From Dehalococcoidia bacterium (GTDB lineage Bacteria; Chloroflexota; Dehalococcoidia; UBA6926): DNA of 64,000 nucleotides. The notes beneath the pieces are model-generated. The model worked only from the letters and a program-made list of their open reading frames with translations, had not been told where the DNA came from and did not search any database. Location of the stretch: assembly GCA_965207115.1 (NCBI GenBank), contig CBDBLR010000003.1, forward strand, positions 2,014 through 66,013. Reading direction: 5' to 3'. How positions within the stretch are numbered: position 1 is the first letter of the stretch; each line of letters starts with the position of its first letter. The position numbers and the translations under genes were made by a program. Of the stretch, positions 1 through 17,560 are shown piece after piece.

Positions 1-636
1 ATGCTCGCAACCCACACCATAGAACCCGAAGACTTGTTCACGATTTCGGCGGGCGGCTTCAACGCCACCGCCGACGCCTTTGCCCGCGACGACCGCACCG
101 ACGGCCTCTGGTTCGTCTCGATGGTCGGCTCCCAGACGGCGCTCAAGGCGATCTGGGCCTCCCTCCTCAAGCAGCCCCCGGACACAGCTCACCTCATCAG
201 GGGCGCGGATGGGATGGCTTTGACCGGCGGCTACGAACGCTGCGTCATTCCCTACGAGTCGGTGGGTACCTGGACGACCAAGATAGCCCGGCTCCCTGGC
301 TCAGGCGGCTGGCATGCGCTCGTGTACTCGAAGATGGCTGAGTTCAGCTTTGAGCGGGACTCCTTCCTGCTGCTGGCGCAGTCGGAGGAGGAGGCCCCGG
401 CGCTGCACCACCGCTTCCTGGACCGGCGCAGCCCGCTGCCCCTGCACGGCTCCTGGGCCGACTGGCTCTGGAAGCGGGGCATCGACAACGGCGAGATACT
501 CCCGCTTCAAAGCGTGGGCGTCTCGGCCTACAGGTGCTCTCCCAAGGCCGACAAGCTCAGGGATGATCTCTCCGACGCCGTTGCGTCGGGCTTGCTCACC
601 CTGCCCAGGGAGGATTCCGATGGACAGGACGCTTAG
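1..636 (+). CDS. hypothetical protein (211 aa); window begins at its ATG so the 5' end may or may not be complete
   Basis: Long ORF, no recognisable motifs. 3' end overlaps next ORF by 17 nt (operon-like). First gene of a co-directional cluster. Confidence 0.35.
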   Translation: MLATHTIEPEDLFTISAGGFNATADAFARDDRTDGLWFVSMVGSQTALKAIWASLLKQPPDTAHLIRGADGMALTGGYERCVIPYESVGTWTTKIARLPGSGGWHALVYSKMAEFSFERDSFLLLAQSEEEAPALHHRFLDRRSPLPLHGSWADWLWKRGIDNGEILPLQSVGVSAYRCSPKADKLRDDLSDAVASGLLTLPREDSDGQDA

Positions 637-2427: not shown

Positions 2428-2543
2428 ACGGCTCGCCATCGAGCCGCACATCCAACGAGGCCCCTGCGCCTCGCCAAGCCTGCCCCGTACTCGATACGGG
2501 GTCATCGGACACGCCCACAACCTACATAAGGAAGGAGAACGAC

Positions 2544-4916
2544 ATGAACCTCGGAGAGTTCATCGACACGTACAAGGAGGCCATCGCCCAGCGGGTGGTG
2601 GAGTCCTACCCGCCGCTCTACCGGCCCTCGGAGAACGGCGGCACGCTCCCTCGCCTGCTCCGCTCCCCCCTGGGGGCGCAGGGGGACGCCATAAGGGGCG
2701 CGGCCCTCTCCCTCGAAGCCCACCGGGGAACGACGGTGGTGGGCGAAATGGGCACGGGCAAGACCTTTATCGGCGCGGCGGCGGCGCACATGGCGGGTTT
2801 CCAGCGCATCCTGGTGCTCTGCCCGCCCCACCTGGTTCCTAAGTGGAAGCGGGAGGTGGAGAAGACGGTGCCCGGCGCCCGCGCCGCCATCGTCACCTCC
2901 ATCACCGACCTGGAGCAGCTCCGCTTCTCCATCGGCTCAGGCCCCCTGTTCGCCGTGATGTCGAGAGAACGGGCGAAATTGTCCTACCGCTGGCAGGCCG
3001 CCGTCACCTACCGGTGGGCCACGTCGAGGGGAAGGCTCATCAGGGACGAGGAGACGGGAGAGCCCTTCCGGGTCCCCTGCTGCCCCGACTGCACGGCGCA
3101 GATCACGGACAAGGATGGCGTGCCGCTGACGGATGCCGACCTGAATCGCCGCAAGCACACCTGCCCCGACTGCGGCATTCCCCTGTGGCAGGCCGACAAC
3201 TCCGGCCCCAAGCGCTACCCGCTTGCGGACTACGTGAAGCACCACATGGGGGGCTTCTTCGACCTGCTGGTAACTGATGAGGTCCACGAGTACAAGGGGC
3301 GCGGCTCGGCCCAGGGCATCGCTGCCGGTGTCCTTGCAGACGCCTGCGGGAAGTCCCTCTCCCTGAGCGGCACCCTCATGGGCGGGTACAGCTCCACGCT
3401 GTTCCATCTCCTCTACAGGTTCAGCCCGGAGATTCGGTCGGAGTTCGGGCGCTCCGAGGAGGGGCGCTGGATCGAGCGGTACGGCTTCGTCGAGCACTCA
3501 ATCGGCAAGCCCGACGACGAGTCGATGGAGGACGGGCGCAACAGCAGGCGCAAGAAGTTCCGTAAGGTGGTCCGGGAGAGGCCGGGGCTTGCCCCATCAG
3601 CCCTCTTCCACCTCATCGGCAACACCGTCTTCCTCCGTCTCACCGACGTGGCGTCGGGGCTGCCGGACTACACCGAGCAGATACTCCTGTCCTCGATGGA
3701 CTCGGAGAAGGACCACACGGGCTACTCCCAGCGCAGCGCCTACGACACCGTGTTCGAGGAACTGCGCAAGGAGCTGGCGGAGGCCCTCAAGAGCGGCTCC
3801 AAGAGGCTGCTGGCTACGTACTTGCAGACGTTGTTGGCCTACCCGGACGGGTGCACCAAAGGGGAGACGGTCTTCGACCCCAGGTCGGGCGACGTCATCG
3901 TGCAGGTGCCGCCCCTGTCCGAGGAGAAGCTCTACCCGAAGGAGCAGGCGCTCATCGATCTGGTGGCCGCCGAGCGGATGGAGGGACGCAGGGTGCTGGT
4001 CTACGTCACCCACACGGGGACCCGGGACATCACCGGGCGCATGGACGACATCCTCACCCGGCACGGCTTCCGGGTGGCGGTGATGAAGGCCGACGCCGTG
4101 GCCCCCGACAAGAGGGAGAAGTGGGTCGCCGACAGGGTGAAGCAGGGCATCGACGTCCTCATCTGCCACCCCAGGCTGGTACAAACCGGACTCGACCTCA
4201 TCGACTTCCCGACAATAGTTTGGGATGAGATAGATTACAGCGTGTACGTGATGAGGCAGGCATCACGTCGGTCGTGGCGCATCGGGCAGACCCGCCCGGT
4301 GAAGGTGGTGTACATGAGCTACCGCAACACCCTACAGGCCGACGCCCTCAAGCTGGTGGCGAAGAAGCTGCAAAGCTCGCTAGCGGTGGAAGGCGAGCTG
4401 CCGGAGGACGGGCTGGCCGCCTTTGGGGACGACGGGGACGACATGATGATGGCCCTGGCCCGCAAGATCGTCAGTGGAGACGAGGAAGAGAACGAGGCCG
4501 AGACGGTGGAGGAGGTCTTCGCCCAGGCGCGGAACGCCGAGGCCACCGCCGAGGAGCTGCTGGTGGACGACGGCTGGAAGGTCGTCGAAGTGGAGCCGGA
4601 GACCGTCGCGGTCAACGGCAACGGCCACCATGTCAACGGCAATGGTCACGACGACCTGTTCGGCATCGGGCCGACGGTGGAGCTGGTTCCGGCCAACGGG
4701 CACGCGCCCGCCAACGGGGCCAACCGGAACGGTCACCACGACGAGGCCGAGGAGCCGCAGGAGACGCTGTTCTCCTGGGCGGAGTTCATGGCCGAGGAGC
4801 CGGTGAAGCCGAAGCGCCGAGGTCGCAAGCCTCAGACCGCAACCATGTCCATGTTCGAGTGGGCACTCAGCCTTGAGCAGGAGCGAGAGGGGGAGCTGGT
4901 CGGCGCGGGACGTTAG
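2544..4916 (+). CDS. SNF2-family (SF2) helicase with inserted zinc ribbon and low-complexity Asn/Gly/His acidic tail, 790 aa
   Basis: Walker A GEMGTGKT, motif II LLVTDEVHEYKG, motif III SGTLMGG, motif VI QASRRSWRIGQTRP. CCPDC...CPDCG Zn ribbon between motifs I and II. ATG 2544 preceded by AAGGAAGGAG; the track's GTG-2253 extension lacks RBS support. Confidence 0.85.
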   Translation: MNLGEFIDTYKEAIAQRVVESYPPLYRPSENGGTLPRLLRSPLGAQGDAIRGAALSLEAHRGTTVVGEMGTGKTFIGAAAAHMAGFQRILVLCPPHLVPKWKREVEKTVPGARAAIVTSITDLEQLRFSIGSGPLFAVMSRERAKLSYRWQAAVTYRWATSRGRLIRDEETGEPFRVPCCPDCTAQITDKDGVPLTDADLNRRKHTCPDCGIPLWQADNSGPKRYPLADYVKHHMGGFFDLLVTDEVHEYKGRGSAQGIAAGVLADACGKSLSLSGTLMGGYSSTLFHLLYRFSPEIRSEFGRSEEGRWIERYGFVEHSIGKPDDESMEDGRNSRRKKFRKVVRERPGLAPSALFHLIGNTVFLRLTDVASGLPDYTEQILLSSMDSEKDHTGYSQRSAYDTVFEELRKELAEALKSGSKRLLATYLQTLLAYPDGCTKGETVFDPRSGDVIVQVPPLSEEKLYPKEQALIDLVAAERMEGRRVLVYVTHTGTRDITGRMDDILTRHGFRVAVMKADAVAPDKREKWVADRVKQGIDVLICHPRLVQTGLDLIDFPTIVWDEIDYSVYVMRQASRRSWRIGQTRPVKVVYMSYRNTLQADALKLVAKKLQSSLAVEGELPEDGLAAFGDDGDDMMMALARKIVSGDEEENEAETVEEVFAQARNAEATAEELLVDDGWKVVEVEPETVAVNGNGHHVNGNGHDDLFGIGPTVELVPANGHAPANGANRNGHHDEAEEPQETLFSWAEFMAEEPVKPKRRGRKPQTATMSMFEWALSLEQEREGELVGAGR

Positions 4917-5046
4917 GCCGCAAGGCACAGGGGGAGGACGACGCCGCATCGTGGCGTCCTCCCCCTGCTCGCCGATGTGTGTGGACTTTTTGTGTTTCTG
5001 AGGAAGCGCTTCCCTCGTTCACGGCCATGTGTGTTGGCCTTTTTGT

Positions 5047-5076
5047 TTGTCTCGAAGCCGCCGGTAATCGTATAAT
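5047..5076 (+). promoter_or_regulatory. near-consensus sigma70-type promoter (TTGTCT-18 nt-TATAAT)
   Basis: -35-like TTGTCT 5047-5052, 18-nt spacer, perfect TATAAT 5071-5076, about 40 nt upstream of ATG 5116. Confidence 0.5.
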
Positions 5077-5115
5077 GTCAGATAGTGTGCGTTCCTAGTA
5101 CGCAAAGAGGTGAGC

Positions 5116-5379
5116 ATGACAACACGCCCCCGCGACGAGACGGCCCGCATCGGGAAAGAGATATATGAGAGGGACATTCGCCATCTTGTCGAGGCGGACC
5201 ACCATGGGGATGTCGTCGCCATCGACATCGGCAGCGGATGCTATGCCCTCGGCAAGAATGCCATTGACGCGTCCGAAGGACTGCGGGACCAACACCCGGG
5301 CGCCCAAGTCTGGCTGATGCGGGTCGGACACCGGACGCTGTATCGCTTCGGAGGCAACTCTCTTCGGGGAGCCGGGTGA
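5116..5379 (+). CDS. small hypothetical protein (87 aa), upstream partner of retropepsin-like protease
   Basis: SD GAGGTGA before ATG 5116. Stop TGA overlaps the next start (ATGA coupling). Confidence 0.5.
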   Translation: MTTRPRDETARIGKEIYERDIRHLVEADHHGDVVAIDIGSGCYALGKNAIDASEGLRDQHPGAQVWLMRVGHRTLYRFGGNSLRGAG

Positions 5380-5750
5380 TGGAGGGTGTCGTCAACGGCC
5401 GTCTCGAAGCCATCATAACAGTTTTCCTGCTAGGCTCTGCGGGGCATGCGAGAGAAATCGACGCCGTGGTTGACACCGGCTTCAACGGCTTTCTGACCCT
5501 GCCACCGATGCTGGTAGCTGACTTGGCGCTGCCTGTCGTAGGTGAGGGCGAAGCGGTCCTCGCCGATGGCAGCGAGGCTGTCTTTGACGTGCATAGCGTC
5601 ACGGTGCTCTGGGATGGTCAACCGAGAGCCGTAGAGACTGGGGCGGTTGGCGGGGACCCGTTGGTGGGAATGGCTCTCATGGAAGACCACGACTTGAGAA
5701 TTCGAGTGTGCAACGGCGGGCGAGTGCTTATAGAGGCTACGTCACAGTAA
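5379..5750 (+). CDS. retropepsin-like (clan AA) aspartic protease, standalone about 120-aa type
   Basis: Catalytic motif VVDTGFNGFLTLP (D-T/S-G) and size match bacterial/archaeal single-domain retropepsin-like proteases. Start overlaps upstream stop. Confidence 0.7.
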   Translation: MEGVVNGRLEAIITVFLLGSAGHAREIDAVVDTGFNGFLTLPPMLVADLALPVVGEGEAVLADGSEAVFDVHSVTVLWDGQPRAVETGAVGGDPLVGMALMEDHDLRIRVCNGGRVLIEATSQ

Positions 5751-6032
5751 GACTGCCGCACATGGGTCGCTTCGAACGCCCCCAAGTCCACTTCTCATAG
5801 ACTGACATTTTCATTGAACAGGTAGACCCTGACAGAATCATTGAACAACAACAACTAGCCTCCGTTCATCTTGACATCTCCGTCCAGATTGGCGGATACT
5901 CTACGCTGGTTTCATGTGACTTGCGTTGATTACAGCTAGAAAATATAGCGATCCAGCGCCCGCACCGCGTCGTGGCATAGGCCGGGCGACCAGGGAGGTT
6001 TGACGACATGACTAACCTGCTGAGGAGCTCTA

Positions 6033-6059: not shown

Positions 6060-9000
6060 ATGCCTGTCGTGAGACGCCCGGCAAGGACCTTCCTCGCCTT
6101 GATGCTGGCTGTGGCGGCGTTGTTTGCGCTGCTGGTCGGCGGGACTGAGAACGCCTCCGCCCAACAACAGTCGCAGGCGCTGGTCAGCAACATTGGTCAG
6201 TCCGACAGCGGGCGGGGCGCATGGGGCAACGACTATGCCCAGGCGTTTACCACAGGCAGCGAGAGCACGGGCTACACGCTGAACAGCGTCGATATCGAGA
6301 TCGCGGGGATCAACGATTTCTCTGCTCTTTCTTCGAAACTAACGGTCACCATCCGCAGCGGTTCCGGCATTACTCCGGGTGCGGTGGTCGGCACCCTGAC
6401 GAATCCCTCCAACCGGATCTTCACCTCGGACCAAACGCTCAACTTCGCTGCGCCCGGGGCGGGCATTGACCTGGCGGCGGACACCAAGTACTGGGTCATG
6501 GTCGACGTGACCGGGAACATTTCGGGCCAGACCAATAGCGACGGCCTGCGCAACACGGCATCGGACGCCGAAGACTCCGGCGCCGCGGCCAGCTGGAGCA
6601 TTGCCGACGACAGCCGGCACCGGACCCGGACCTCAACCGGCGCCTGGACCACCTCTACCGAATCCATGAAAATCCGGATCGTCGGCGGCGTGAAGCCGCC
6701 GCTCATCAGCAACCTCGGTCAGGCGGACACCGGCGGCACGGGGTTGAATATCGACCAGGCCCAAGCGTTCACCACAGGTGGCAACGGCGGGGGTTACACG
6801 CTAACCAGCGCCGATTTGGTAATCGGCCTGAACAACGATTCTGCTCTCTCATCGAAACTGACGGCCACCATCCAGAGCCCGCTGGGCACGGTCATCGGCA
6901 CTCTGACGACTCCCGCCATCCCAACGACGAACTCGAATCAAACGGTCAACTTCGCCGCGCCCGGGGATGGCATCGACCTGGCGGCGAACACCACATACTG
7001 GTTGGTGTTCGACAGTACAGGAGTCTCAACGGGTGATGCTAGTACCGGAGCTACCCCATCGTCCGCCGAGGACTCCGGCGGCGCGGACGGCTTCAGCATC
7101 GCCAACGACAGATGGTACCGGTTCCAGAGCGATACTTCTTGGACTCAGATCGGCGGCAGCGCGCTGAAAATCCGCATCATCGGCGGCGTGAAGCTGCTTA
7201 CAGTGAACGCCGACGGCAGCTACACGGTGCCCGAGGACTGGGCGCTGCTCCCGGCGGGCTTCGGGCCTGGGGACCGGTTCCGGCTGATGTTCATGACGCA
7301 GGGTATGGAAAGTGCGCTTCGAAGCGACATCGGGTTCTACGACACGTATGTGCAAGGCGAGGCGGAGAGCGGGCACGGCGCCATCCGGCCGTATGCGGAG
7401 CTGTTCAAGGTGGTGGGCTCGACCTCGGCGGTGGACGCCCGTGACCACCTGGACATGAACCCGAGCAGCGACGGCGCGGGCCATCCCGTCTACTGGCTGC
7501 GCGGCCCCCGCATCGCGGATGACACCGCCGAGTTCTGGTCGGACAACTGGCAGAACTGGACGATTGCCAACCGCCGCAACGCGAACGGGAACGAGATGAC
7601 CGGCAGTGCGAGAGGCGACTGGCACTGGACCGGCACGCGAGCGGACGGGAGGGGGCACGCCTCCTTGCATCTGGGGAGCAACGACCGGGTTATGCGGGGC
7701 CGGTTCCTGAACTTCACCTCCGACCGGAACCCGCTCGACCACACCGGAACGCCCCGGGGCCAGGACCACTCCTTCTACGCCATGTCGCCGGTGTTCGTCG
7801 TGGATGGCCTCACCTATCTGGACCCTGGCAGCAACCCCCAGACTGGGAAACTCGTCGAAATCGACAAGACCCGCTTCAAGGTGGACGAGCCCGCCAGCTG
7901 CGGGGTGAACGAGGGCCGCAAGCAGAACGAGCGTGATAGTGATAGAGAGGGTAAGTGGGAGTCAACCATCGCGGACGACACGACGTACTCGTACAACGTG
8001 CGGCTGTTGCGGGACCCGGCGCTCGACCCGAAGATCGACACGGTGAAGGTTGAAGTGGTGGGCGGCAGCCCGCCCGACTGGTGGACGGCGCACCGGGCAG
8101 GGTTTGTGACGGTGGAGGACAAGGCTCCGGATATTGAGCCCAAGCAGGTCCTGCATTTCGATTCGTCCAACTGGGACCAGTGGCAGAACGTCCAGCTGCG
8201 GATTCACTGCGCGGACCACTTCCACTTCGGCGATGTCACCTGGCGGCAGTTCCGGCACGTCAGCTACACAAACAACAAGAGAAGGGATGGTAGGACTTTC
8301 CTGCAGAACGAAGAGCCGGTGGTGAAGGTGAAGGTGTTCGACAACCGGATACCGGCGTTGATGGACAGCTACAGCCACGAACTGAGCATGCAGGCGGAGA
8401 CCAACGAGTACGGCCGCCGTGGGGTTGAGACCGAGGTCATCAACTACGTGTACTGGCAGTGGAAGTTGCCCGGCGTCACGGGCAACGTGGACAGCGATGC
8501 GGACAAGCACTTCTCCCACTGGCATCTGCGGCTGCTCGCGGACAATAGTGTTGGTGGCAATGCACCGGACTGGGTCAAGAACGTCTCGACCGACGAGGGG
8601 TACTCCTTCAATCCGGACGGCAGATACAAGGCTGGGATGCGGATGCGGGGTCTGCCGACCAAGACGCCGTTCACCGCGCCTCCGAACAAGCAGTACCGGC
8701 TCGACATCACTCCGGTGACCCTGCGGGAAGAGATGGCGGAGGGCGCGAAGCTGACCGTCTGCATAGAGATGCGGGACGTGCGTCCAGACTGGGACACCCC
8801 CAACTGGCGGGCGTACTACATCCCCTGCACGCCGGCGCTGAATGCCCTGAGCCCCCAGCAGATGGCCCCGCCGGTGACCCCGACAGTGTTCATCGCGGGG
8901 GCCGGGGGCGGAGATGAAGGGCAGGGCTCCGTCTTCTTCATCAACACGAACCCCAAGCCCAGGTCCCCGCTGAAGGTGAATGTGGAGGTCACGGCCACGG

Positions 9001-12000
9001 GCGACTACGGGGTGACGACGGGGACGCGGACCATCACGATCCCGACCACGGGCCTCTACGACCTGAACATCGCCACCGTGGACGACGAGGTGGACGAGGA
9101 CGACGGCACGGTGACCCTCACCCTGCGGGATGGCGACGGCTACATCGTCGGCCCGGGGAACACGGAGACCACCGACGTCTTCGACAACGACCTGCCGCTG
9201 GCGCCGGCCATAGTCACGCCCGCGGTGAACGTCACGGGGGCCTCCGGCGGGAACGAGGGCGAGGACGCCGTCTTCACCCTGGAGGCGAGCCCCAAGACGG
9301 ACGCCGCCCTGGACGTGAACATAGAAGTCACGGCCACGGGCAGCTACGGGGTGAAGCCGGGCAAGCGGACGGTGACGATACCGGCCTCGGGCAGCCTGAG
9401 GCTGACCATCCCCACCAGGAATGATGGCACGGACGAACCCGACGGCACGGTGACCGTGACCCTGCAGGCCGGGGACGGCTACGAGATCGGGGCGCAGGCC
9501 TCGCAGAGCGCGGACATATTGGACAACGACCTGCCACCGGTGCAGGTCACAGTCGCCGACGCCATAGCGCAGGAGGGCGACGACCTGGAGTTCGTGATCA
9601 GCCTGGACCGCGCGGCGGACCACCAGGTCATCGTGCACTACGTCACGCTGGACTGGGATGCCTGGCATCCGGACGACTACGCCCAGGCCCTCGGCCACGT
9701 GACGTTCGCGCCGGGCGAGACGCAGCAGACGGTGCGCGTCCCGACAGTGGTTGACAACCGGGACGAATGGGGCCATGAGGAGGGGCAGGAGCGAATGCTC
9801 TTCCAGGTGACGGGCGTCGAAGGCGGCGAGGACGGCGACGATGATACCATCGGGATCATCAGCGACGACCCGGTGGACACCACGCCGAAGCCGGAGCTGA
9901 GCATCAGCGGAGGCAGCGGGATCACCGAGGGCGGCACGGCCACCTTCACCATCACCGCGAGCTTTGCGCCGGAAGACCCCATCACCGTCAAGGTGGGGGT
10001 GTCCCAGGGCGGGGACTTCGGCGTCTCGACCGGCACCAAGACGGTGACGGTGAGCGGCACGTCGACGACCTACACCGTCACGACTACAGACGACAGCGCC
10101 GACGAGCCGGACGGCTCGGTGACGGCGACGCTGCAAAGCGGCAGCGGCTACACCGTGTCTTCCTCGAATGGAGCGGCGTCGGTGTCCGTGGCCGACGACG
10201 ACCTGCCGCCGCCGGTGGCGAGCATCACCGGAGGCAATGGGATCACCGAGGGCGGCACTGCCAGCTTCACCATCACGGTCAACCCGGCCCCAACCAGTCC
10301 AATCACGGTCAAGGTGGGGGTCTCCCAGAGCGGGAACTTCGGCGTCAGCACCGGGACCAAGACGGTGACGGTGAGCGGCGGGACGGCGACCTACACCGTG
10401 ACTACCATCAATGACAACGCCGACGAGCCCGACGGCTCGGTGACGGCGACGCTGCAAAGCGGCAGCGGCTACACCGTGTCCTCCTCTAATGGAGCGGCCA
10501 CGGTGGCCGTGGCCGACGACGACGTCACGCCTGAGGTGAACGTCACCAGCGCGGCCAGCGGACCGGAGGGTCAGGACGTCACCTTCACGCTGACGGCCAA
10601 CCCGGCCCCGGGGGCCAACCTGCCGGTGAGCGTCACGGTGACCGGCAGCGGCGACTACGGCGTCTCCACGGGAACCTGGGTCGAGACCATCCCGACCGGC
10701 GGGAGCGTCGTCGTGACGCTCACCACCACGGACGACTCGACCGACGAGCCCAACGGGTCGGTGACGCTGACGGTGAACGGCGGCCAGGGCTACACCGTGG
10801 GGTCCCTGTCCAGTGAGACGGTGACGGTGACCGACAACGACGAACCACGGCAGCCACTACTGCTGCCGGACCCCGAGGTGAGCATCACCGCAGGGAGCGG
10901 GATCATCGAGGGCGGCACTGCGACCTTCACCATCACCGCCAACCCGGCGCCAAGCAGCCCCATCACGGTCAACGTGGGGGTCAGCGAGAACGGCGACTTC
11001 GGTGCCAGCGGCGCGGCCACGGTCACGGTGAGCGGCGCGAGCACGACCTACACCGTGACAACGACCAACGACAACGCCGACGAGGCCGACGGGTCGGTGA
11101 CGGCGACGCTGCAAACGGGCAGCGGCTACACCGTGTCCTCATCGCAGGGGGCGGCCTCCGTGGCCGTGTCCGACGACGACGTGCCCGAGGTGAGCATCAC
11201 CGCAGGCAGCGGGATCACCGAGGGCGGCACGGCCAGCTTCACCATCACGGCCAGCCCGGCCCCGGCCAGCCCCATCACGGTCAAGGTGGGGGTCAGCGAG
11301 AACGGAGACTTCGGGGCCAGCGGGTCGGCCACGGTGACGGTGAGCGGCGCGAGCACGACCTATACCGTGACCACCATCAATGACAACGCCGACGAGGCCG
11401 ACGGGTCGGTGACGGCGACGCTGCAATCGGGCAGCGGCTACACCGTGTCCTCATCGCAGGGGGCGGCGACGGTTGCCGTGTCGGACGACGACGTGCCCGA
11501 GGTGAGCATCGCCGCAGGGAGTGGGATCACCGAGGGAGGCACGGCCAGCTTCACCATCACGGCCAACCCTGCCCCGGCCAGCCCCATCACGGTCAAGGTC
11601 GCAGTAAGCGAGAACGGCGACTTCGGGGCCAGCGGGTCGGCCACGGTGACGGTGAGCGGCGCGAGCACGACCTACACCGTGACCACCACCAATGACAACG
11701 CCGACGAGGCCGACGGCTCGGTGACGGCGACGCTGCAATCGGGCAGCGGCTACACGGTGTCCTCCTCACAGGGGGAGGCTACCGTTGCGGTGTCGGACGA
11801 CGACGTGCCGACCGACGGCAACAGCGACACCCTGACGGTGTCCGTCGCGGATTCGGAGAGCGCAGGTCCGGGAGAGTTCCTCAAGTTCACGGTCTCGGCC
11901 AGCGAGACCGCCCAGCAGGATGTCACCGTCACGTTCACCGTGAGCAACATCGGCGGCTTGATTCAAGGCTTGGACTACTGCATCCTGCCCTCGGATGAGG

Positions 12001-12224
12001 AGCCCGACGCCAACTTCCGGTGCATGTTCCTCCCCTATGAGCATGACAACGAGGGAGGCCAGGTGACCATCGCCGCGGGCGAGGACAGCGCGACGGTCTA
12101 CATCTGGATCGACCGGGACGCCCGGGTGCCCTCCGGCCAGCCGCGGATCTTCGTCGATCTCACCGAGGTGGAGGGAGCGAAGGAGATTACCGATGGACTT
12201 GGAGAGGGCCGGGTCGAAAGATAA
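6060..12224 (+). CDS. giant secreted surface protein (2054 aa): signal peptide, two N-terminal ~175-aa repeat domains, central globular region, ~10 Calx-beta-like tandem domains
   Basis: N-terminus MPVVRRPARTFLALMLAVAALFALLVGGTENASA-QQQ (signal peptide, AxA cleavage). Repeats of ~100 aa ending ...TVTIxDNDxP / ...VAVSDDDVPEV, typical of Calx-beta. High DNA identity between repeats. Confidence 0.85.
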   Translation: MPVVRRPARTFLALMLAVAALFALLVGGTENASAQQQSQALVSNIGQSDSGRGAWGNDYAQAFTTGSESTGYTLNSVDIEIAGINDFSALSSKLTVTIRSGSGITPGAVVGTLTNPSNRIFTSDQTLNFAAPGAGIDLAADTKYWVMVDVTGNISGQTNSDGLRNTASDAEDSGAAASWSIADDSRHRTRTSTGAWTTSTESMKIRIVGGVKPPLISNLGQADTGGTGLNIDQAQAFTTGGNGGGYTLTSADLVIGLNNDSALSSKLTATIQSPLGTVIGTLTTPAIPTTNSNQTVNFAAPGDGIDLAANTTYWLVFDSTGVSTGDASTGATPSSAEDSGGADGFSIANDRWYRFQSDTSWTQIGGSALKIRIIGGVKLLTVNADGSYTVPEDWALLPAGFGPGDRFRLMFMTQGMESALRSDIGFYDTYVQGEAESGHGAIRPYAELFKVVGSTSAVDARDHLDMNPSSDGAGHPVYWLRGPRIADDTAEFWSDNWQNWTIANRRNANGNEMTGSARGDWHWTGTRADGRGHASLHLGSNDRVMRGRFLNFTSDRNPLDHTGTPRGQDHSFYAMSPVFVVDGLTYLDPGSNPQTGKLVEIDKTRFKVDEPASCGVNEGRKQNERDSDREGKWESTIADDTTYSYNVRLLRDPALDPKIDTVKVEVVGGSPPDWWTAHRAGFVTVEDKAPDIEPKQVLHFDSSNWDQWQNVQLRIHCADHFHFGDVTWRQFRHVSYTNNKRRDGRTFLQNEEPVVKVKVFDNRIPALMDSYSHELSMQAETNEYGRRGVETEVINYVYWQWKLPGVTGNVDSDADKHFSHWHLRLLADNSVGGNAPDWVKNVSTDEGYSFNPDGRYKAGMRMRGLPTKTPFTAPPNKQYRLDITPVTLREEMAEGAKLTVCIEMRDVRPDWDTPNWRAYYIPCTPALNALSPQQMAPPVTPTVFIAGAGGGDEGQGSVFFINTNPKPRSPLKVNVEVTATGDYGVTTGTRTITIPTTGLYDLNIATVDDEVDEDDGTVTLTLRDGDGYIVGPGNTETTDVFDNDLPLAPAIVTPAVNVTGASGGNEGEDAVFTLEASPKTDAALDVNIEVTATGSYGVKPGKRTVTIPASGSLRLTIPTRNDGTDEPDGTVTVTLQAGDGYEIGAQASQSADILDNDLPPVQVTVADAIAQEGDDLEFVISLDRAADHQVIVHYVTLDWDAWHPDDYAQALGHVTFAPGETQQTVRVPTVVDNRDEWGHEEGQERMLFQVTGVEGGEDGDDDTIGIISDDPVDTTPKPELSISGGSGITEGGTATFTITASFAPEDPITVKVGVSQGGDFGVSTGTKTVTVSGTSTTYTVTTTDDSADEPDGSVTATLQSGSGYTVSSSNGAASVSVADDDLPPPVASITGGNGITEGGTASFTITVNPAPTSPITVKVGVSQSGNFGVSTGTKTVTVSGGTATYTVTTINDNADEPDGSVTATLQSGSGYTVSSSNGAATVAVADDDVTPEVNVTSAASGPEGQDVTFTLTANPAPGANLPVSVTVTGSGDYGVSTGTWVETIPTGGSVVVTLTTTDDSTDEPNGSVTLTVNGGQGYTVGSLSSETVTVTDNDEPRQPLLLPDPEVSITAGSGIIEGGTATFTITANPAPSSPITVNVGVSENGDFGASGAATVTVSGASTTYTVTTTNDNADEADGSVTATLQTGSGYTVSSSQGAASVAVSDDDVPEVSITAGSGITEGGTASFTITASPAPASPITVKVGVSENGDFGASGSATVTVSGASTTYTVTTINDNADEADGSVTATLQSGSGYTVSSSQGAATVAVSDDDVPEVSIAAGSGITEGGTASFTITANPAPASPITVKVAVSENGDFGASGSATVTVSGASTTYTVTTTNDNADEADGSVTATLQSGSGYTVSSSQGEATVAVSDDDVPTDGNSDTLTVSVADSESAGPGEFLKFTVSASETAQQDVTVTFTVSNIGGLIQGLDYCILPSDEEPDANFRCMFLPYEHDNEGGQVTIAAGEDSATVYIWIDRDARVPSGQPRIFVDLTEVEGAKEITDGLGEGRVER
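10872..11807 (+). repeat. three near-identical 312-bp (104-aa) in-frame tandem repeats inside giant gene
   Basis: Unit begins CCCGAGGTGAGCATCACCGCAGG at 10872, 11184 and 11496. Minus-strand shadow ORFs also recur with a 312-nt offset. Confidence 0.9.
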
Positions 12225-12576: not shown

Positions 12577-13986
12577 TCACTCACTTACCGGAAGGCGAAT
12601 GGTCACCGTCACGCCCTGCCCGGGACCGTCGCTCGCGACATCAACCGTGCCTCCATGCGCCTCGATAATCGCTCGGGTAATGGCCAACCCCAGCCCCGTC
12701 CCGCCGACCCCTCGATTACGAGACTGGTCGGTTCGGTAGAAGCGATCAAAGATATGGGGAATGTCCGCGGCGTCGATGCCGATTCCGTCATCGGTGATTG
12801 AGACCACCAGCGCCTCGTCGCCGTCTTGTCTGGCCTTCAGCAGAATACTTCCTCCGGCCTCGGTGCAATGAATAGCGTTGTTGATAACGTTTCCCAGCGC
12901 CTGGCTCATGCGCATGCGATCAACGTCCACGTCTGGGAGGTCAGGGGCCAGATCCACCGACAGCGCAACGTTCCCGGCCTCACACTGGGGCTGCCACCGG
13001 TTCACTTCTGCTGTGAACAGCTCGGAAAGCGATGTTGCTTCCCGCGCAAGCCGAAGCTCTCCATGGTCGGTCTCCGCAAGCCAGTCCAGGTCAGTCACTA
13101 TGCCGCCCAGCCTGTCCACCTCCTGGATGATGTGATCCGAGGCGCTCTCAGGGGACTGAAGTCCATCCCGCAGCCCCTTCGCCTCCAGCTTGATAACACT
13201 CAGTGGGGTGTTCAGCTCGTGCGAGACGTCGTTTATCAGACGCCTGCGAAGCTCGCGCTGGGTCTCCAGGGCGGAGGTCATCCGGTTGAACGCCGCGCTC
13301 ATACGGCCCAACTCGTCTGAGGATGTGACCGGAAGCCGCGTCGCGTCCCCCTGGGCAATCGACTGGGTCGCCTCGGTCAATGCCTTCACGGGCGCCGTGA
13401 TCCGCCTGGACAACCAGAAAGCCACCAGGATGGCAATGCCAACCGTCAGCGCCCCGCCAATCGCAGTGATGTAAAGGAGTGTATTGAGGAACCCATGTGT
13501 CTCGGTGGACAAGTATTCCTGGTTCACGTCCACGTAGACGTAACCCACCGGCTGGTCATTAGCCAGGTCGAACACCGTCTCCTGCCGCCCCTCCAGCTCG
13601 GACGTGATGTCTTCCGGAGAGAGCACGGACAGGTTGTCCATCACAACACGCCCATCGAGCCCGGTGATAACAACTCGCACCTGGTCTTGATGGAATAGTT
13701 CCGAAGAGCCTTCCTCCCCCTCCCGGTGATTTTCCCCTTCCCGAGGACCGTCGTAAATGTATCCGGCCTCGGACAGTGCCCGGTCCACTGTTTCCCAGCC
13801 ATCTGCGGCGGTATACTCCCGGCTTATGTCTCTGGCCAGCTGAGCAGCCTCCTCACTGCCGATCCGGTCCACGAACACACCAAGGCGGGCCTGCGTCGCG
13901 TAGTAGCCAACGGCGACGCTTGCCAGGACAGTAAGAAGGACGACCAGAACGGTCACGCCCATGATTCGCCAGTGAAGAGACATCAC
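12577..13986 (-). CDS. sensor histidine kinase (2 TM, periplasmic sensor, HAMP, HisKA, HATPase_c)
   Basis: H-box VSHELNTPL; G-boxes GGTGLGL; two hydrophobic segments flanking an ~150-aa extracytoplasmic domain; overlaps RR gene by 4 nt. Confidence 0.85.
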   Translation of the reverse strand: MMSLHWRIMGVTVLVVLLTVLASVAVGYYATQARLGVFVDRIGSEEAAQLARDISREYTAADGWETVDRALSEAGYIYDGPREGENHREGEEGSSELFHQDQVRVVITGLDGRVVMDNLSVLSPEDITSELEGRQETVFDLANDQPVGYVYVDVNQEYLSTETHGFLNTLLYITAIGGALTVGIAILVAFWLSRRITAPVKALTEATQSIAQGDATRLPVTSSDELGRMSAAFNRMTSALETQRELRRRLINDVSHELNTPLSVIKLEAKGLRDGLQSPESASDHIIQEVDRLGGIVTDLDWLAETDHGELRLAREATSLSELFTAEVNRWQPQCEAGNVALSVDLAPDLPDVDVDRMRMSQALGNVINNAIHCTEAGGSILLKARQDGDEALVVSITDDGIGIDAADIPHIFDRFYRTDQSRNRGVGGTGLGLAITRAIIEAHGGTVDVASDGPGQGVTVTIRLPVSE

Positions 13987-14660
13987 TCGTCCTCTACCAC
14001 GAACCTGTAGCCCGCCCCGTACACGGTCTGAATCGGCGTATTGCCATCCTGGTTGATCTGCCTTCGCAGAGGGGCAACCTGGCTGTCGATGGCACGGTCA
14101 AACCCTTCAAATTCATCGTTGAAGGCCAGGGCGATTAGCCGGTCGCGCGAAAGCACCTGGTTGGGATGACGCATAAACGTCGAGAGCAGGGCTATCTGCG
14201 CCTGGCTCAGCGTCACGGGTTCTTCGTTAACCGTCACGACACTCGTGGTCTCGTTCAGCATGATGTTGCCGCGGGTCAGAACCTGCTGGACTTTGTCCTT
14301 CACGCGGCGTAGCACGGCTGTGGCTCGGGCAATGACCTCATCCGGATCGAATGGCTTGACGATGTAGTCGTCGGCTCCAATATCGAGTCCCATGATGCGC
14401 TCGGCGGGCGCTTCTCTGGCCGTCAGCATGATGATTGCAACGTCCGATTCCCGGCGCAGGATCTTGCACAACTCCACTCCGTCGAGGCGGGGAAGCATCA
14501 GATCAAGAATGATTAGGTCGGGAGCCAGTTCGCGGGCCAGTGCCAGACCGGCCTCGCCGTCGTGGGCAACCTCAGCGGAAAATCCGGCACGTTCGAAATA
14601 CACCCTGACCCAGTTCGCGATCCGGGTATCGTCTTCGACTATTAGTACCGTGTCGCTCAT
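13983..14660 (-). CDS. OmpR-family response regulator
   Basis: Receiver LIVEDD...ILDLMLP...D; winged-helix C-terminus GYRFV. Confidence 0.9.
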   Translation of the reverse strand: MSDTVLIVEDDTRIANWVRVYFERAGFSAEVAHDGEAGLALARELAPDLIILDLMLPRLDGVELCKILRRESDVAIIMLTAREAPAERIMGLDIGADDYIVKPFDPDEVIARATAVLRRVKDKVQQVLTRGNIMLNETTSVVTVNEEPVTLSQAQIALLSTFMRHPNQVLSRDRLIALAFNDEFEGFDRAIDSQVAPLRRQINQDGNTPIQTVYGAGYRFVVEDE

Positions 14661-16561: not shown

Positions 16562-17560
16562 TTATGGAATCCAGGCTCTCCACACAGACTCGTTGGCATC
16601 AACCCACTCTTGTGCGGCCAGGCGCACCGTGAGGTCGTTCGCAGTCAGGTTGAGCACAATTTCGTTCTGCTGTGCGTTGGTCATCTGGAAGTTGTTGAGG
16701 AATTCGAATGCCTCCGGAAACTCCTCCTCAAGACCGGGCCACATCAGCTTGGTGACAGGATCGGTTGGGTAGCCGCAGTCAAATCGCTCGCCATCCGGAT
16801 AGCAATCTGAAGTCCATTCCGGCATCTCAATCGGGATAAGGTCGTACTTGGCGTGTGCCCAGTGGGGTTCCCACAGGTACGTGATAATCGGGTCGCCTCG
16901 CTGGAAAGCAGCATCCAGCTCAGCCAGGGCCGCGCCCTCATACCCGGCGAATACCACTTGGAAGTCGATACCAAACGCTTCGAGGCGTTCCTCTGGCCTC
17001 GTGTCCCACGCAGGCGTGAACTCAAGCAGCCTGCCGCTCGTGCCGGTGTCGCTCGTGGCAAAGACGGACTTGTACTGGTCCATGTCTGCAACACTGCGGA
17101 GGTTGGGGGCGGCGGCCTCTATGCCTCGCTCAGGATCTCCGTTGACGACGTAGGAAGGCACATACCAACCTGTCTCTCCCGATATTCCTACCGGACCCAT
17201 CCGCTCCACTGTGGCCTCTTCGCCGTCTACGTATTCATTGAGGAGTTCGGCGCTGTATGACGGCCAGTTGCAGCAAACGAAGTGAAAGTCGCCATTTTCG
17301 AGCCCGAGGAAGAGCGGTGCCGAATCGGCGGGCGCGAACTTGGTCGCGACCGTGTGGCCCATCTCTTGCTCCAACAGGATCTGCGCCACAGCTGTTGTGA
17401 CGAGCTGCCCGTTCCAGTCCTGGTCGACGAGATAGAGTGTGCCTCTCTCGTCTGACTCCATTTCCTCGTCGGCTTGTTCACAGGCCATCCCAACTGCAAG
17501 GCCAAGGGCCAGCAGGGCTGCCAATAGAATTCCGATCCACTTGTTTTTCACTATGCTCAT
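16562..17560 (-). CDS. proX: glycine betaine/proline ABC transporter substrate-binding lipoprotein (ProX/OpuAC family)
   Basis: Lipoprotein signal (…LAVGMAC); OpuAC-fold sequence; adjacent to fused ProW permease and ProV ATPase with CBS domains. Confidence 0.7.
   Translation of the reverse strand: MSIVKNKWIGILLAALLALGLAVGMACEQADEEMESDERGTLYLVDQDWNGQLVTTAVAQILLEQEMGHTVATKFAPADSAPLFLGLENGDFHFVCCNWPSYSAELLNEYVDGEEATVERMGPVGISGETGWYVPSYVVNGDPERGIEAAAPNLRSVADMDQYKSVFATSDTGTSGRLLEFTPAWDTRPEERLEAFGIDFQVVFAGYEGAALAELDAAFQRGDPIITYLWEPHWAHAKYDLIPIEMPEWTSDCYPDGERFDCGYPTDPVTKLMWPGLEEEFPEAFEFLNNFQMTNAQQNEIVLNLTANDLTVRLAAQEWVDANESVWRAWIP

Follow-up and report, generated by a model that had tools for sequence, protein, structure and literature searches.

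Bacteria and archaea commonly carry free-standing retropepsin-like proteases, of which only a handful have been given a role. Characterised bacterial members found in the literature are, according to the titles and abstracts of the respective papers, APRc of Rickettsia (PMC4140852; Protein Data Bank (PDB) entry 5c9b), RimB of Pseudomonas, which is found within the RimABK ribosome-modification complex (PMC11957791), and the secreted Rlo proteases of P. aeruginosa (PMC12239564). The retropepsin-domain protein Saci_1895 is associated with type III CRISPR-Cas in Sulfolobales (PMC3973734). The locus described here lies in a 64,000-nucleotide stretch of a Dehalococcoidia genome (contig CBDBLR010000003.1 of assembly GCA_965207115.1, positions 2,014 to 66,013), and this whole stretch is called the window below. 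Positions 5040-5750 of the window hold, all on the forward strand, a promoter, an open reading frame for an 87-aa protein (ORF1) and the gene of a clan-AA aspartic protease (ORF2).

The two genes are read here as a horizontally mobile module with toxin-antitoxin logic, in which a disordered C-terminal tail of ORF1 would hold the protease inactive, and a probability of about 0.5 is given to this reading. A toxin/antitoxin-like arrangement had been suggested in a first-pass annotation of the window; the suggestion is favoured by the asymmetric linkage of the two genes, by tandem arrays, by plasmid and defence-locus sites and by covariation between the two proteins, and it stays putative. The module consists of the following features.

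5023-5046, forward strand: terminator-like hairpin (GGCCA..TGGCC) with T-run, abutting the -35 box, from a sequence scan
5047-5076, forward strand: sigma-70-type promoter TTGTCT-18-TATAAT, from a site scan and conservation in relatives
5077-5115, forward strand: 5' leader with a small hairpin (TGCGT..ACGCA) and the Shine-Dalgarno sequence GAGGTGA (5107-5113), by direct reading
5116-5379, forward strand: ORF1, 87 aa, of an uncatalogued family, putative inhibitor/antitoxin; start ATG at 5116, stop TGA at 5377-5379
5320-5376, forward strand: C-terminal tail of ORF1 (residues 69-87, RVGHRTLYRFGGNSLRGAG), conserved, proposed protease-binding segment
5366-5379, forward strand: coupling junction, with Shine-Dalgarno-like GGGGAG (5366-5371) followed by GTGA (5376-5379), in which the GTG start overlaps the TGA stop
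5376-5750, forward strand: ORF2, 124 aa, single-domain retropepsin-like (clan AA) aspartic protease, putative toxin/effector; stop at 5748-5750
5472-5483, forward strand: catalytic motif D33-T-G-F, conserved among homologues
5661-5672, forward strand: second retropepsin signature L96-V-G-M99 (hydrophobic-hydrophobic-Gly), the form PL+GM being conserved in at least 90%

Linkage of the two genes and one-sided loss

With ORF1 as seed, one genome per species was scanned and 80 loci were obtained, in most of which an ORF2 homologue directly follows. A second set, collected from metagenomes by ORF2 similarity alone, comprised 80 loci at 41-58% identity with 78 N-terminally complete ORF2 copies, and an ORF1-family gene lay directly upstream in 76/76 of the copies with enough upstream sequence; the small frame is thus conserved beside the protease, a point on which the first-pass annotation had made its proposal depend. 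Over all loci, 129 copies were intact pairs with the 4-nt overlap, 29 had another junction or a frameshift, 14 had an intact ORF1 followed by a truncated ORF2, and 8 had an intact ORF1 with ORF2 deleted. Loss was one-sided: an intact protease was missing from 16 of the 98 copies picked by ORF1 and ORF1 from 0 of the 76 picked by ORF2 (Fisher p=7.5e-5, between two sets that differ in collection and clade). The cases of absent ORF2 are plain deletions, in which its first codons (MIEG...) are kept and joined to unrelated sequence, or ORF1 is fused to the last ORF2 residues; protease remnants also directly follow two cyanobacterial-type ORF1 homologues from metagenomes. Orphan putative antitoxins with no orphan toxins fit a type II toxin-antitoxin system. 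For the subfamily sampled, and as judged from these loci, the linkage is obligate and asymmetric.

Junctions were compared in 92 homologous pairs from 81 genomic loci, and 81 of the 92 have an NTGA junction (4-nt overlap), mostly GTGA followed by ATC or ATA. Because this junction is kept, comparison indicates that the conserved start of ORF2 is GTG 5376 (124 aa, 4-nt overlap) and not ATG 5379, where the public gene call P0121 (123 aa) opens and where most homologues have ATC or ATA. The translational coupling proposed earlier from a TGA/ATG overlap therefore stands, whereas the start at ATG 5379 with its 1-nt overlap does not; likewise the earlier description of ORF2 as a 123-aa single-domain clan-AA D-T-G protease holds for the family (see the profile score and DTGF motif below) and is revised to 124 aa for the length.

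Relative to ORF1, ORF2 is read in the -1 frame, as would suit a Gag-Pro-like arrangement in which, as in retroviruses, a -1 frameshift near the ORF1 stop yields an autoprocessing ORF1-protease fusion, and a natural ORF1-ORF1-ORF2 fusion of 313 aa (P0351, L082:935-1876) exists. However, any NTGA overlap gives the -1 frame automatically, the Shine-Dalgarno-like GGGGAG precedes the GTG, direct reading revealed no X XXY YYZ slippery heptamer ahead of the stop, and the fusion, seen on one 8.8-kb contig only, may have arisen from an indel error in assembly. An arrangement of this kind is very improbable, and programmed -1 frameshifting was rejected for want of a slippery site.

The protease, its partner and their covariation

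ORF2 matched the NCBIfam model TIGR03698 (clan_AA_DTGF) with 61.3 bits, above the curated cutoff of 57.35 (E=9.5e-17, profile positions 12-105 of 107), and by curated score and sequence motifs it is a member of that family, one of the profiles to which the first-pass annotation had pointed. The PF13650 and PF13975 models that it also named gave no match to ORF2, nor did the other clan-AA Pfam families at E<=1, and none of the ORF2 homologues listed carries a precomputed Pfam domain. The search found 1,425 ORF2 homologues. In 70 full-length ones the active-site motif reads DTGF (57), DTGY (10), DTGH (1) or DSGF (1) and is absent from 1; D-T/S-G is thus conserved in 69 of 70, the second point on which the earlier proposal had been made to depend. 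Direct reading revealed no signal peptide or membrane segment in ORF2.

A structural model of the fusion homologue P0351, built from a block alignment, had an overall predicted local distance difference test score (pLDDT) of 56.8, with the blocks of the protease domain mostly at 71-90, and a helix is predicted in it straight after the hydrophobic-hydrophobic-Gly motif. The best PDB matches of its protease domain were Rickettsia APRc 5c9b (E=4.7e-3, probability 1.0), then renins and the equine infectious anaemia virus protease. Searched as a profile, ORF2 found no match among PDB sequences, and hhalign against a profile of human immunodeficiency virus type 1 protease aligned 15 columns, around the DTG only. 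The modelled structure is consistent with a retropepsin fold for ORF2 and is not independently strong. As a view of the ORF1:ORF2 interface the P0351 model was discarded as unusable at its overall pLDDT.

The partner had been described earlier as a protein of unknown family, and the searches agree: ORF1 had no match in Pfam, NCBIfam or PADLOC and a marginal one only in PHROGs, and its AlphaFold2 model found no significant fold match in the PDB. There are 183 close homologues at 72-90% identity, and an ORF1 profile run against 1.84 billion representative proteins retrieved 2,647 clusters (50% identity) at E<=1e-3, 689 of them at E<=1e-10; cyanobacterial members are labelled 'hypothetical protein' in RefSeq. 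A Pfam scan of 24 close and 49 diverse relatives gave no meaningful match, and DUF5678, a remembered lead, was rejected as the family of ORF1 after matching 1 of the 24 close homologues at E=0.093 and 0 of the 49 diverse members. The model (pLDDT 85.6) has the order alpha-beta-beta-alpha-beta, with helices at residues 6-25 and 49-59 and strands at 33-37, 43-46 and 65-69. Beyond the last strand the confidence declines, with block averages (10 residues per block) of pLDDT 61 for residues 71-80 and 47 for 81-87, and the tail is predicted to be disordered when ORF1 is alone. Its residues R69, G71, F78 and G79 are among the most conserved positions of the family, G71 and G79 being invariant in 126/126 sequences and R69 kept in 118. 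Many antitoxins have a conserved tail that is predicted to be disordered.

Covariation was measured as mutual information with average product correction on 126 unique concatenated ORF1-ORF2 pairs (effective number of sequences, 78). The top coupling of the whole matrix joined ORF1 residue 76 to ORF2 residue 89 (z=8.9) and stood above every intra-protein pair: Y76 occurs with G, A, L or F at ORF2 position 89 in 61 sequences, and H or R76 with D or E in 44. A neighbour-joining tree from which columns 76 and 89 were left out has 6 branches that switch both classes together (Fisher p=1.2e-5), out of 15 and 12 class changes in total over 250 branches. This charge-compensating covariation argues for a physical contact between ORF1 and ORF2, as far as sequences can indicate one. 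Further top couplings joined ORF1 64-68 and 73-77 to ORF2 37-38 (just past the DTG), 54-58 and 87-94. From motif spacing and the low-confidence model (pLDDT 56.8), the coupled ORF2 positions would map either to the first flap strand or to the strand and loop ahead of LVGM. In retropepsins these elements wall the substrate groove. The mirror-tree correlation (r=0.81) is expected from linkage alone.

A tail that touches the groove could instead belong to a dedicated substrate or precursor, with ORF2 cutting the tail of ORF1 between G71 and G79 (for instance HRTLY/RFGG, the slash marking the cut) and so maturing ORF1 or freeing an active C-terminal peptide. The covariation of tail and protease suits a substrate as well as an inhibitor, as does the obligate linkage, and the conserved disordered tail offers about 7 residues between invariant glycines, a length that would suit a retropepsin groove. 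Against a substrate, intact ORF1 outlives loss of the protease in the 16 of 98 copies given above and the reverse is never seen; no genes for export, modification or a receptor co-occur; the tail is not hypervariable, unlike a signal or the core of a ribosomally synthesised and post-translationally modified peptide; and the well-folded conserved core of ORF1 would be left unexplained. A substrate role is thought rather unlikely.

ORF1 also occurs fused to itself. Tandem ORF1-ORF1 proteins of about 200-223 aa are P0241 (L170:2501-3103) and P0242 (L171:2501-3172), the latter followed, with the usual overlap, by a 122-aa gene product, and about 25 of the best 150 ORF1-family representatives have two matched stretches. 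Such fusions are a hint that ORF1 works in dimeric form, as its protease would.

Module boundaries, copy number and genomic settings

Promoter matches of at least 10/12 were found at only four sites over the two strands of the window, and 5047-5076 is the only one of the four with a perfect TATAAT, which bears out the earlier ranking of TTGTCT-18-TATAAT among the window's best; a TAnAAT -10 box was found again upstream of most homologues. No operator-like inverted repeat or clear operator palindrome was found in the module promoter, and Rfam and tRNA scans around the module returned no match. The leader (5077-5115) is conserved in the four closest loci (L002-L005). Upstream of the promoter, the hairpin at 5023-5046 probably ends the preceding helicase operon and insulates the module, and since this hairpin and T-run are followed by a promoter of its own the pair forms a separate transcription unit.

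The hairpin and T-run are also the second copy of an imperfect direct repeat (4961-4991 and 5013-5043, 71% identical over 31 nt, 52 nt apart) of the form ...ATGTGTGTGG(A/C)CTTTTT, and it is this copy that abuts the -35 box. In 756 kb of loci, 11 of 19 occurrences of the motif G[GT][GC]C[CT]TTTT sit 75-175 nt before ORF1. Elements resembling GCGGCCTTTTT, at times doubled, were also observed to precede homologous modules in unrelated loci. The repeat and T-run element may serve as a terminator that insulates the module or as an UP element, or may mark an insertion site.

An alignment was made of the window and the four loci closest to it, which come without exception from Dehalococcoidia metagenome-assembled genomes (MAGs) and whose ORF1 is 83-90% identical. 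DNA identity spans about 5040 to the ORF2 stop, opening at the T-run and -35 box, and the flanks are unrelated in all five genomes. Clustering of all flank ORFs in 81 loci gave no other family in more than 7 loci, and a count of the Pfam families in 122 flanking ORFs came to 129, with none present more than 5 times and with some transposases, serine recombinases, N6/Eco57I methylases and UvrD-type helicases among them.

Since conservation stops at its edges and its neighbours vary, the module is, on these alignments, autonomous and not functionally part of the DUF6094 methyltransferase and SNF2-like helicase genes upstream or of the giant Calx-beta protein downstream. The first-pass annotation had left room for the pair to belong to the methyltransferase/helicase cluster or to the adhesin, and that view is not supported by the comparison. 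An accessory role in either neighbour system would draw on physical adjacency in the window, on relatives of the pair inside BREX and type I restriction-modification loci, and on weak matches of the upstream genes to the defence models mad2, ZorD and DpdE. It is met by the terminator-like hairpin and separate promoter between the helicase gene and the module, by identity with the 83-90% relatives that ends at the module edges, and by the lack of any recurring neighbour or flanking Pfam family above the counts just given. Such a role is largely refuted and hardly credible.

The upstream genes are a DUF6094-family methyltransferase (1056-2093, forward), which matches PADLOC mad2 at 7e-17, and an SNF2-like helicase (2541-4916, forward) with weak ZorD, DpdE and BrxH matches and no Pfam match at 1e-5; a 211-aa ORF at window positions 1-636 is without a family. 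They may form an uncharacterised defence or mobile-element cluster. Downstream, a 300-nt spacer that is AT-richer than its surroundings separates the module from the gene of a 2,054-aa repeat-rich protein (6060-12224, forward) that has a Calx-beta domain and a signal-like segment at its N-terminus; ahead of this gene lies a second strong promoter-like site, TTGACA-18-GATACT (5871-5900). Past this adhesin, on the reverse strand, are a HAMP/HisKA/HATPase sensor kinase with an OmpR-type response regulator (12577-14660) and an OpuAC glycine-betaine-binding protein (16562-17560), so that the module and the upstream cluster border ordinary chromosomal genes. No tRNA gene was found within 20 kb of the module. 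The guanine plus cytosine (GC) content of the module (0.60-0.63) is below that of its immediate neighbours (0.66-0.68) and equal to the window mean (0.61), and no claim of foreign composition is made from it.

Copies are numerous in at least one genome, the 3.43-Mb Dehalococcoidia MAG OZ253489.1, which carries at least 12. Eight of them form tandem ORF1-ORF2 pairs within 7 kb (L063:2700-9550). In 7 of the 8 units of this array the 190 nt upstream agree at 89-97% identity, a stretch that takes in the last part of the ORF2 before, then promoter and leader, and an N-terminal extension of ORF1. The coding cores of these units are only 70-77% identical in DNA and 54-69% (ORF1) and 49-67% (ORF2) in protein. 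The array suggests homogenised boundaries with diversified cassettes, arisen through gene conversion or diversifying selection.

The taxonomic spread is patchy, covering Chloroflexota, Cyanobacteria and one Acidobacteriota genome. Nearly all ORF1-seeded loci come from Dehalococcoidia/Chloroflexota MAGs; the one from Vicinamibacterales (Acidobacteriota; MAG OY761475.2, L060) has both genes intact, ORF1 at 66% and ORF2 at 55% identity to those of the window, which is consistent with horizontal transfer. Cyanobacterial plasmids, both conjugative and mobilizable, carry the pair at 28-48% identity, with gene order and overlap retained. In pCC7120alpha of Nostoc PCC 7120 the pair (WP_010999914/WP_010999913) adjoins ParDE and the nuclease-inhibitor pair NucA/NuiA (L088:3732-4381), and in plasmid pNSMS101 of Nostoc sp. 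MS1 it is placed inside a BREX-1 system, with pglZ and pglX on either side (L089:3726-4363), the pglX being split by IS630. On a metagenome contig it stands between hsdR and hsdS of a type I restriction-modification locus (L170:3301-3953). Phage records and IMG/VR contigs had no match to either protein, which leaves a phage origin unsupported.

These settings also bear on a third arrangement, an obligate heteromeric enzyme in which ORF1 would, as a subunit, activate a regulatory or housekeeping protease or bring substrates to it, comparable to RimB in RimABK. Strict co-occurrence and coupled translation, giving a fixed stoichiometry, would fit such an enzyme, as would contact seen through covariation, an ORF1 as conserved as ORF2 and the fused two-domain ORF1 proteins. 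A housekeeping role misfits the 12 or more divergent copies, the tandem arrays, the plasmid and defence sites, the patchy spread and the one-sided protease loss, and the heteromer is judged unlikely. The substrate and the heteromer both predict linkage and contact, yet they explain the asymmetry, the copy number and the sites less well. A toxin-antitoxin-like module explains the one-sided decay, the diversified paralogue arrays, the mobile and defence-island sites and the patchy taxonomy.

The toxin-antitoxin-like reading and known systems

Under the toxin-antitoxin-like reading, one promoter would give a bicistronic mRNA from which ORF1 is translated first, and termination-reinitiation at GTGA would then yield ORF2, so that the protease would never be made without its partner. 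ORF2 would be a cytoplasmic aspartic protease that presumably forms a homodimer, each subunit giving one Asp, and the tail of ORF1 would dock at or near the substrate groove and keep it inactive. Once ORF1 is lost, degraded or titrated, whether by loss of the plasmid, by a phage or by stress, the protease would be released to cleave proteins of the cell, which would be arrested or killed. We infer tail binding, inhibition, toxicity and trigger alike. A bolder form is tentative and is the less probable: the family may be a new widespread toxin-antitoxin or abortive-infection class, with a cytoplasmic retropepsin-like toxin, a pseudo-substrate tail on a partner of new fold, and tandem, specificity-diversified cognate pairs behind homogenised promoters.

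Several observations weigh against the toxin-antitoxin-like reading. ORF1 matches no helix-turn-helix (HTH), ribbon-helix-helix (RHH), AbrB or Phd family, which leaves autoregulation unsupported. The charge pattern is non-classical, with a median isoelectric point of 4.3 for ORF2 and 6.8 for ORF1. Antitoxins usually diverge faster than toxins, and ORF1 is at least as conserved as ORF2 among close relatives. Known toxin-antitoxin or defence models match neither protein, and the PADLOC-DB 2.0 models at E<=0.1 gave 0 families for ORF1 and 0 for ORF2. The covariation is a sign of contact, not of inhibition, and the mapping of the coupled ORF2 positions to the groove is drawn from motif spacing and the low-confidence model. 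The asymmetry carries the difference between its two sets, and proteolytic activity, toxicity and inhibition are putative, being read from sequence.

If the toxin-antitoxin-like reading is true, an aspartic protease would be a further toxin chemistry for toxin-antitoxin and abortive-infection systems, a natural protein that inhibits a retropepsin would be at hand, the tandem arrays would be a model for insulation between paralogous cognate pairs, and the ORF1 family (about 2,600 clusters at 50% identity) would be a new one for Pfam and NCBIfam to define. For one large subfamily of free-standing retropepsin-like proteases it supplies a testable hypothesis.

Among described families the closest is TIGR03698, with which ORF2 shares the DTGF motif, the single domain of about 120 aa and the hydrophobic-hydrophobic-Gly signature, and whose name the cyanobacterial homologues carry in RefSeq. 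That name covers the protease only, and no partner, function or substrate was found described for it; the link to ORF1 is established for the subfamily sampled. APRc, RimB and the Rlo proteases have the clan-AA fold predicted for ORF2 and share its D-T/S-G motif, APRc being the best structural match for the homologous domain. APRc is membrane-anchored. ORF2 differs in its lack of a signal peptide or membrane segment, and the titles and abstracts on these three mention no small ORF1-like upstream partner. Saci_1895, compared by description only, resembles ORF2 in its size of about 100 aa, its single retropepsin domain and its defence setting, and differs in being archaeal and CRISPR-linked. Pairs of Xre with COG2856 (ImmA/IrrE-type metalloprotease) were reportedly predicted by Makarova et al. 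in 2009 to be toxin-antitoxin-like; they share with the present pair a small regulator or neutraliser, a coupled protease and mobile sites, and differ in catalytic class, in fold and in having an HTH DNA-binding partner.

In the open-access literature and bioRxiv no description of the pair was found, nor of a retropepsin-like protease linked to toxin-antitoxin systems, nor of a characterised aspartic-protease toxin in such a system. Type II toxin-antitoxin systems differ from the module in that the putative toxin here is an aspartic protease and ORF1 lacks an RHH, HTH, AbrB or Phd-type fold. The likenesses are the co-directional small genes with the putative neutraliser first, the 4-nt overlap, the separate promoter, multiple copies, plasmid and defence sites, patchiness, orphan 'antitoxins' and the conserved tail predicted to be disordered. 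What would be new here, as read from sequence, is a toxin-antitoxin-like architecture that combines a new toxin chemistry, in a putative toxin, with a new partner family.

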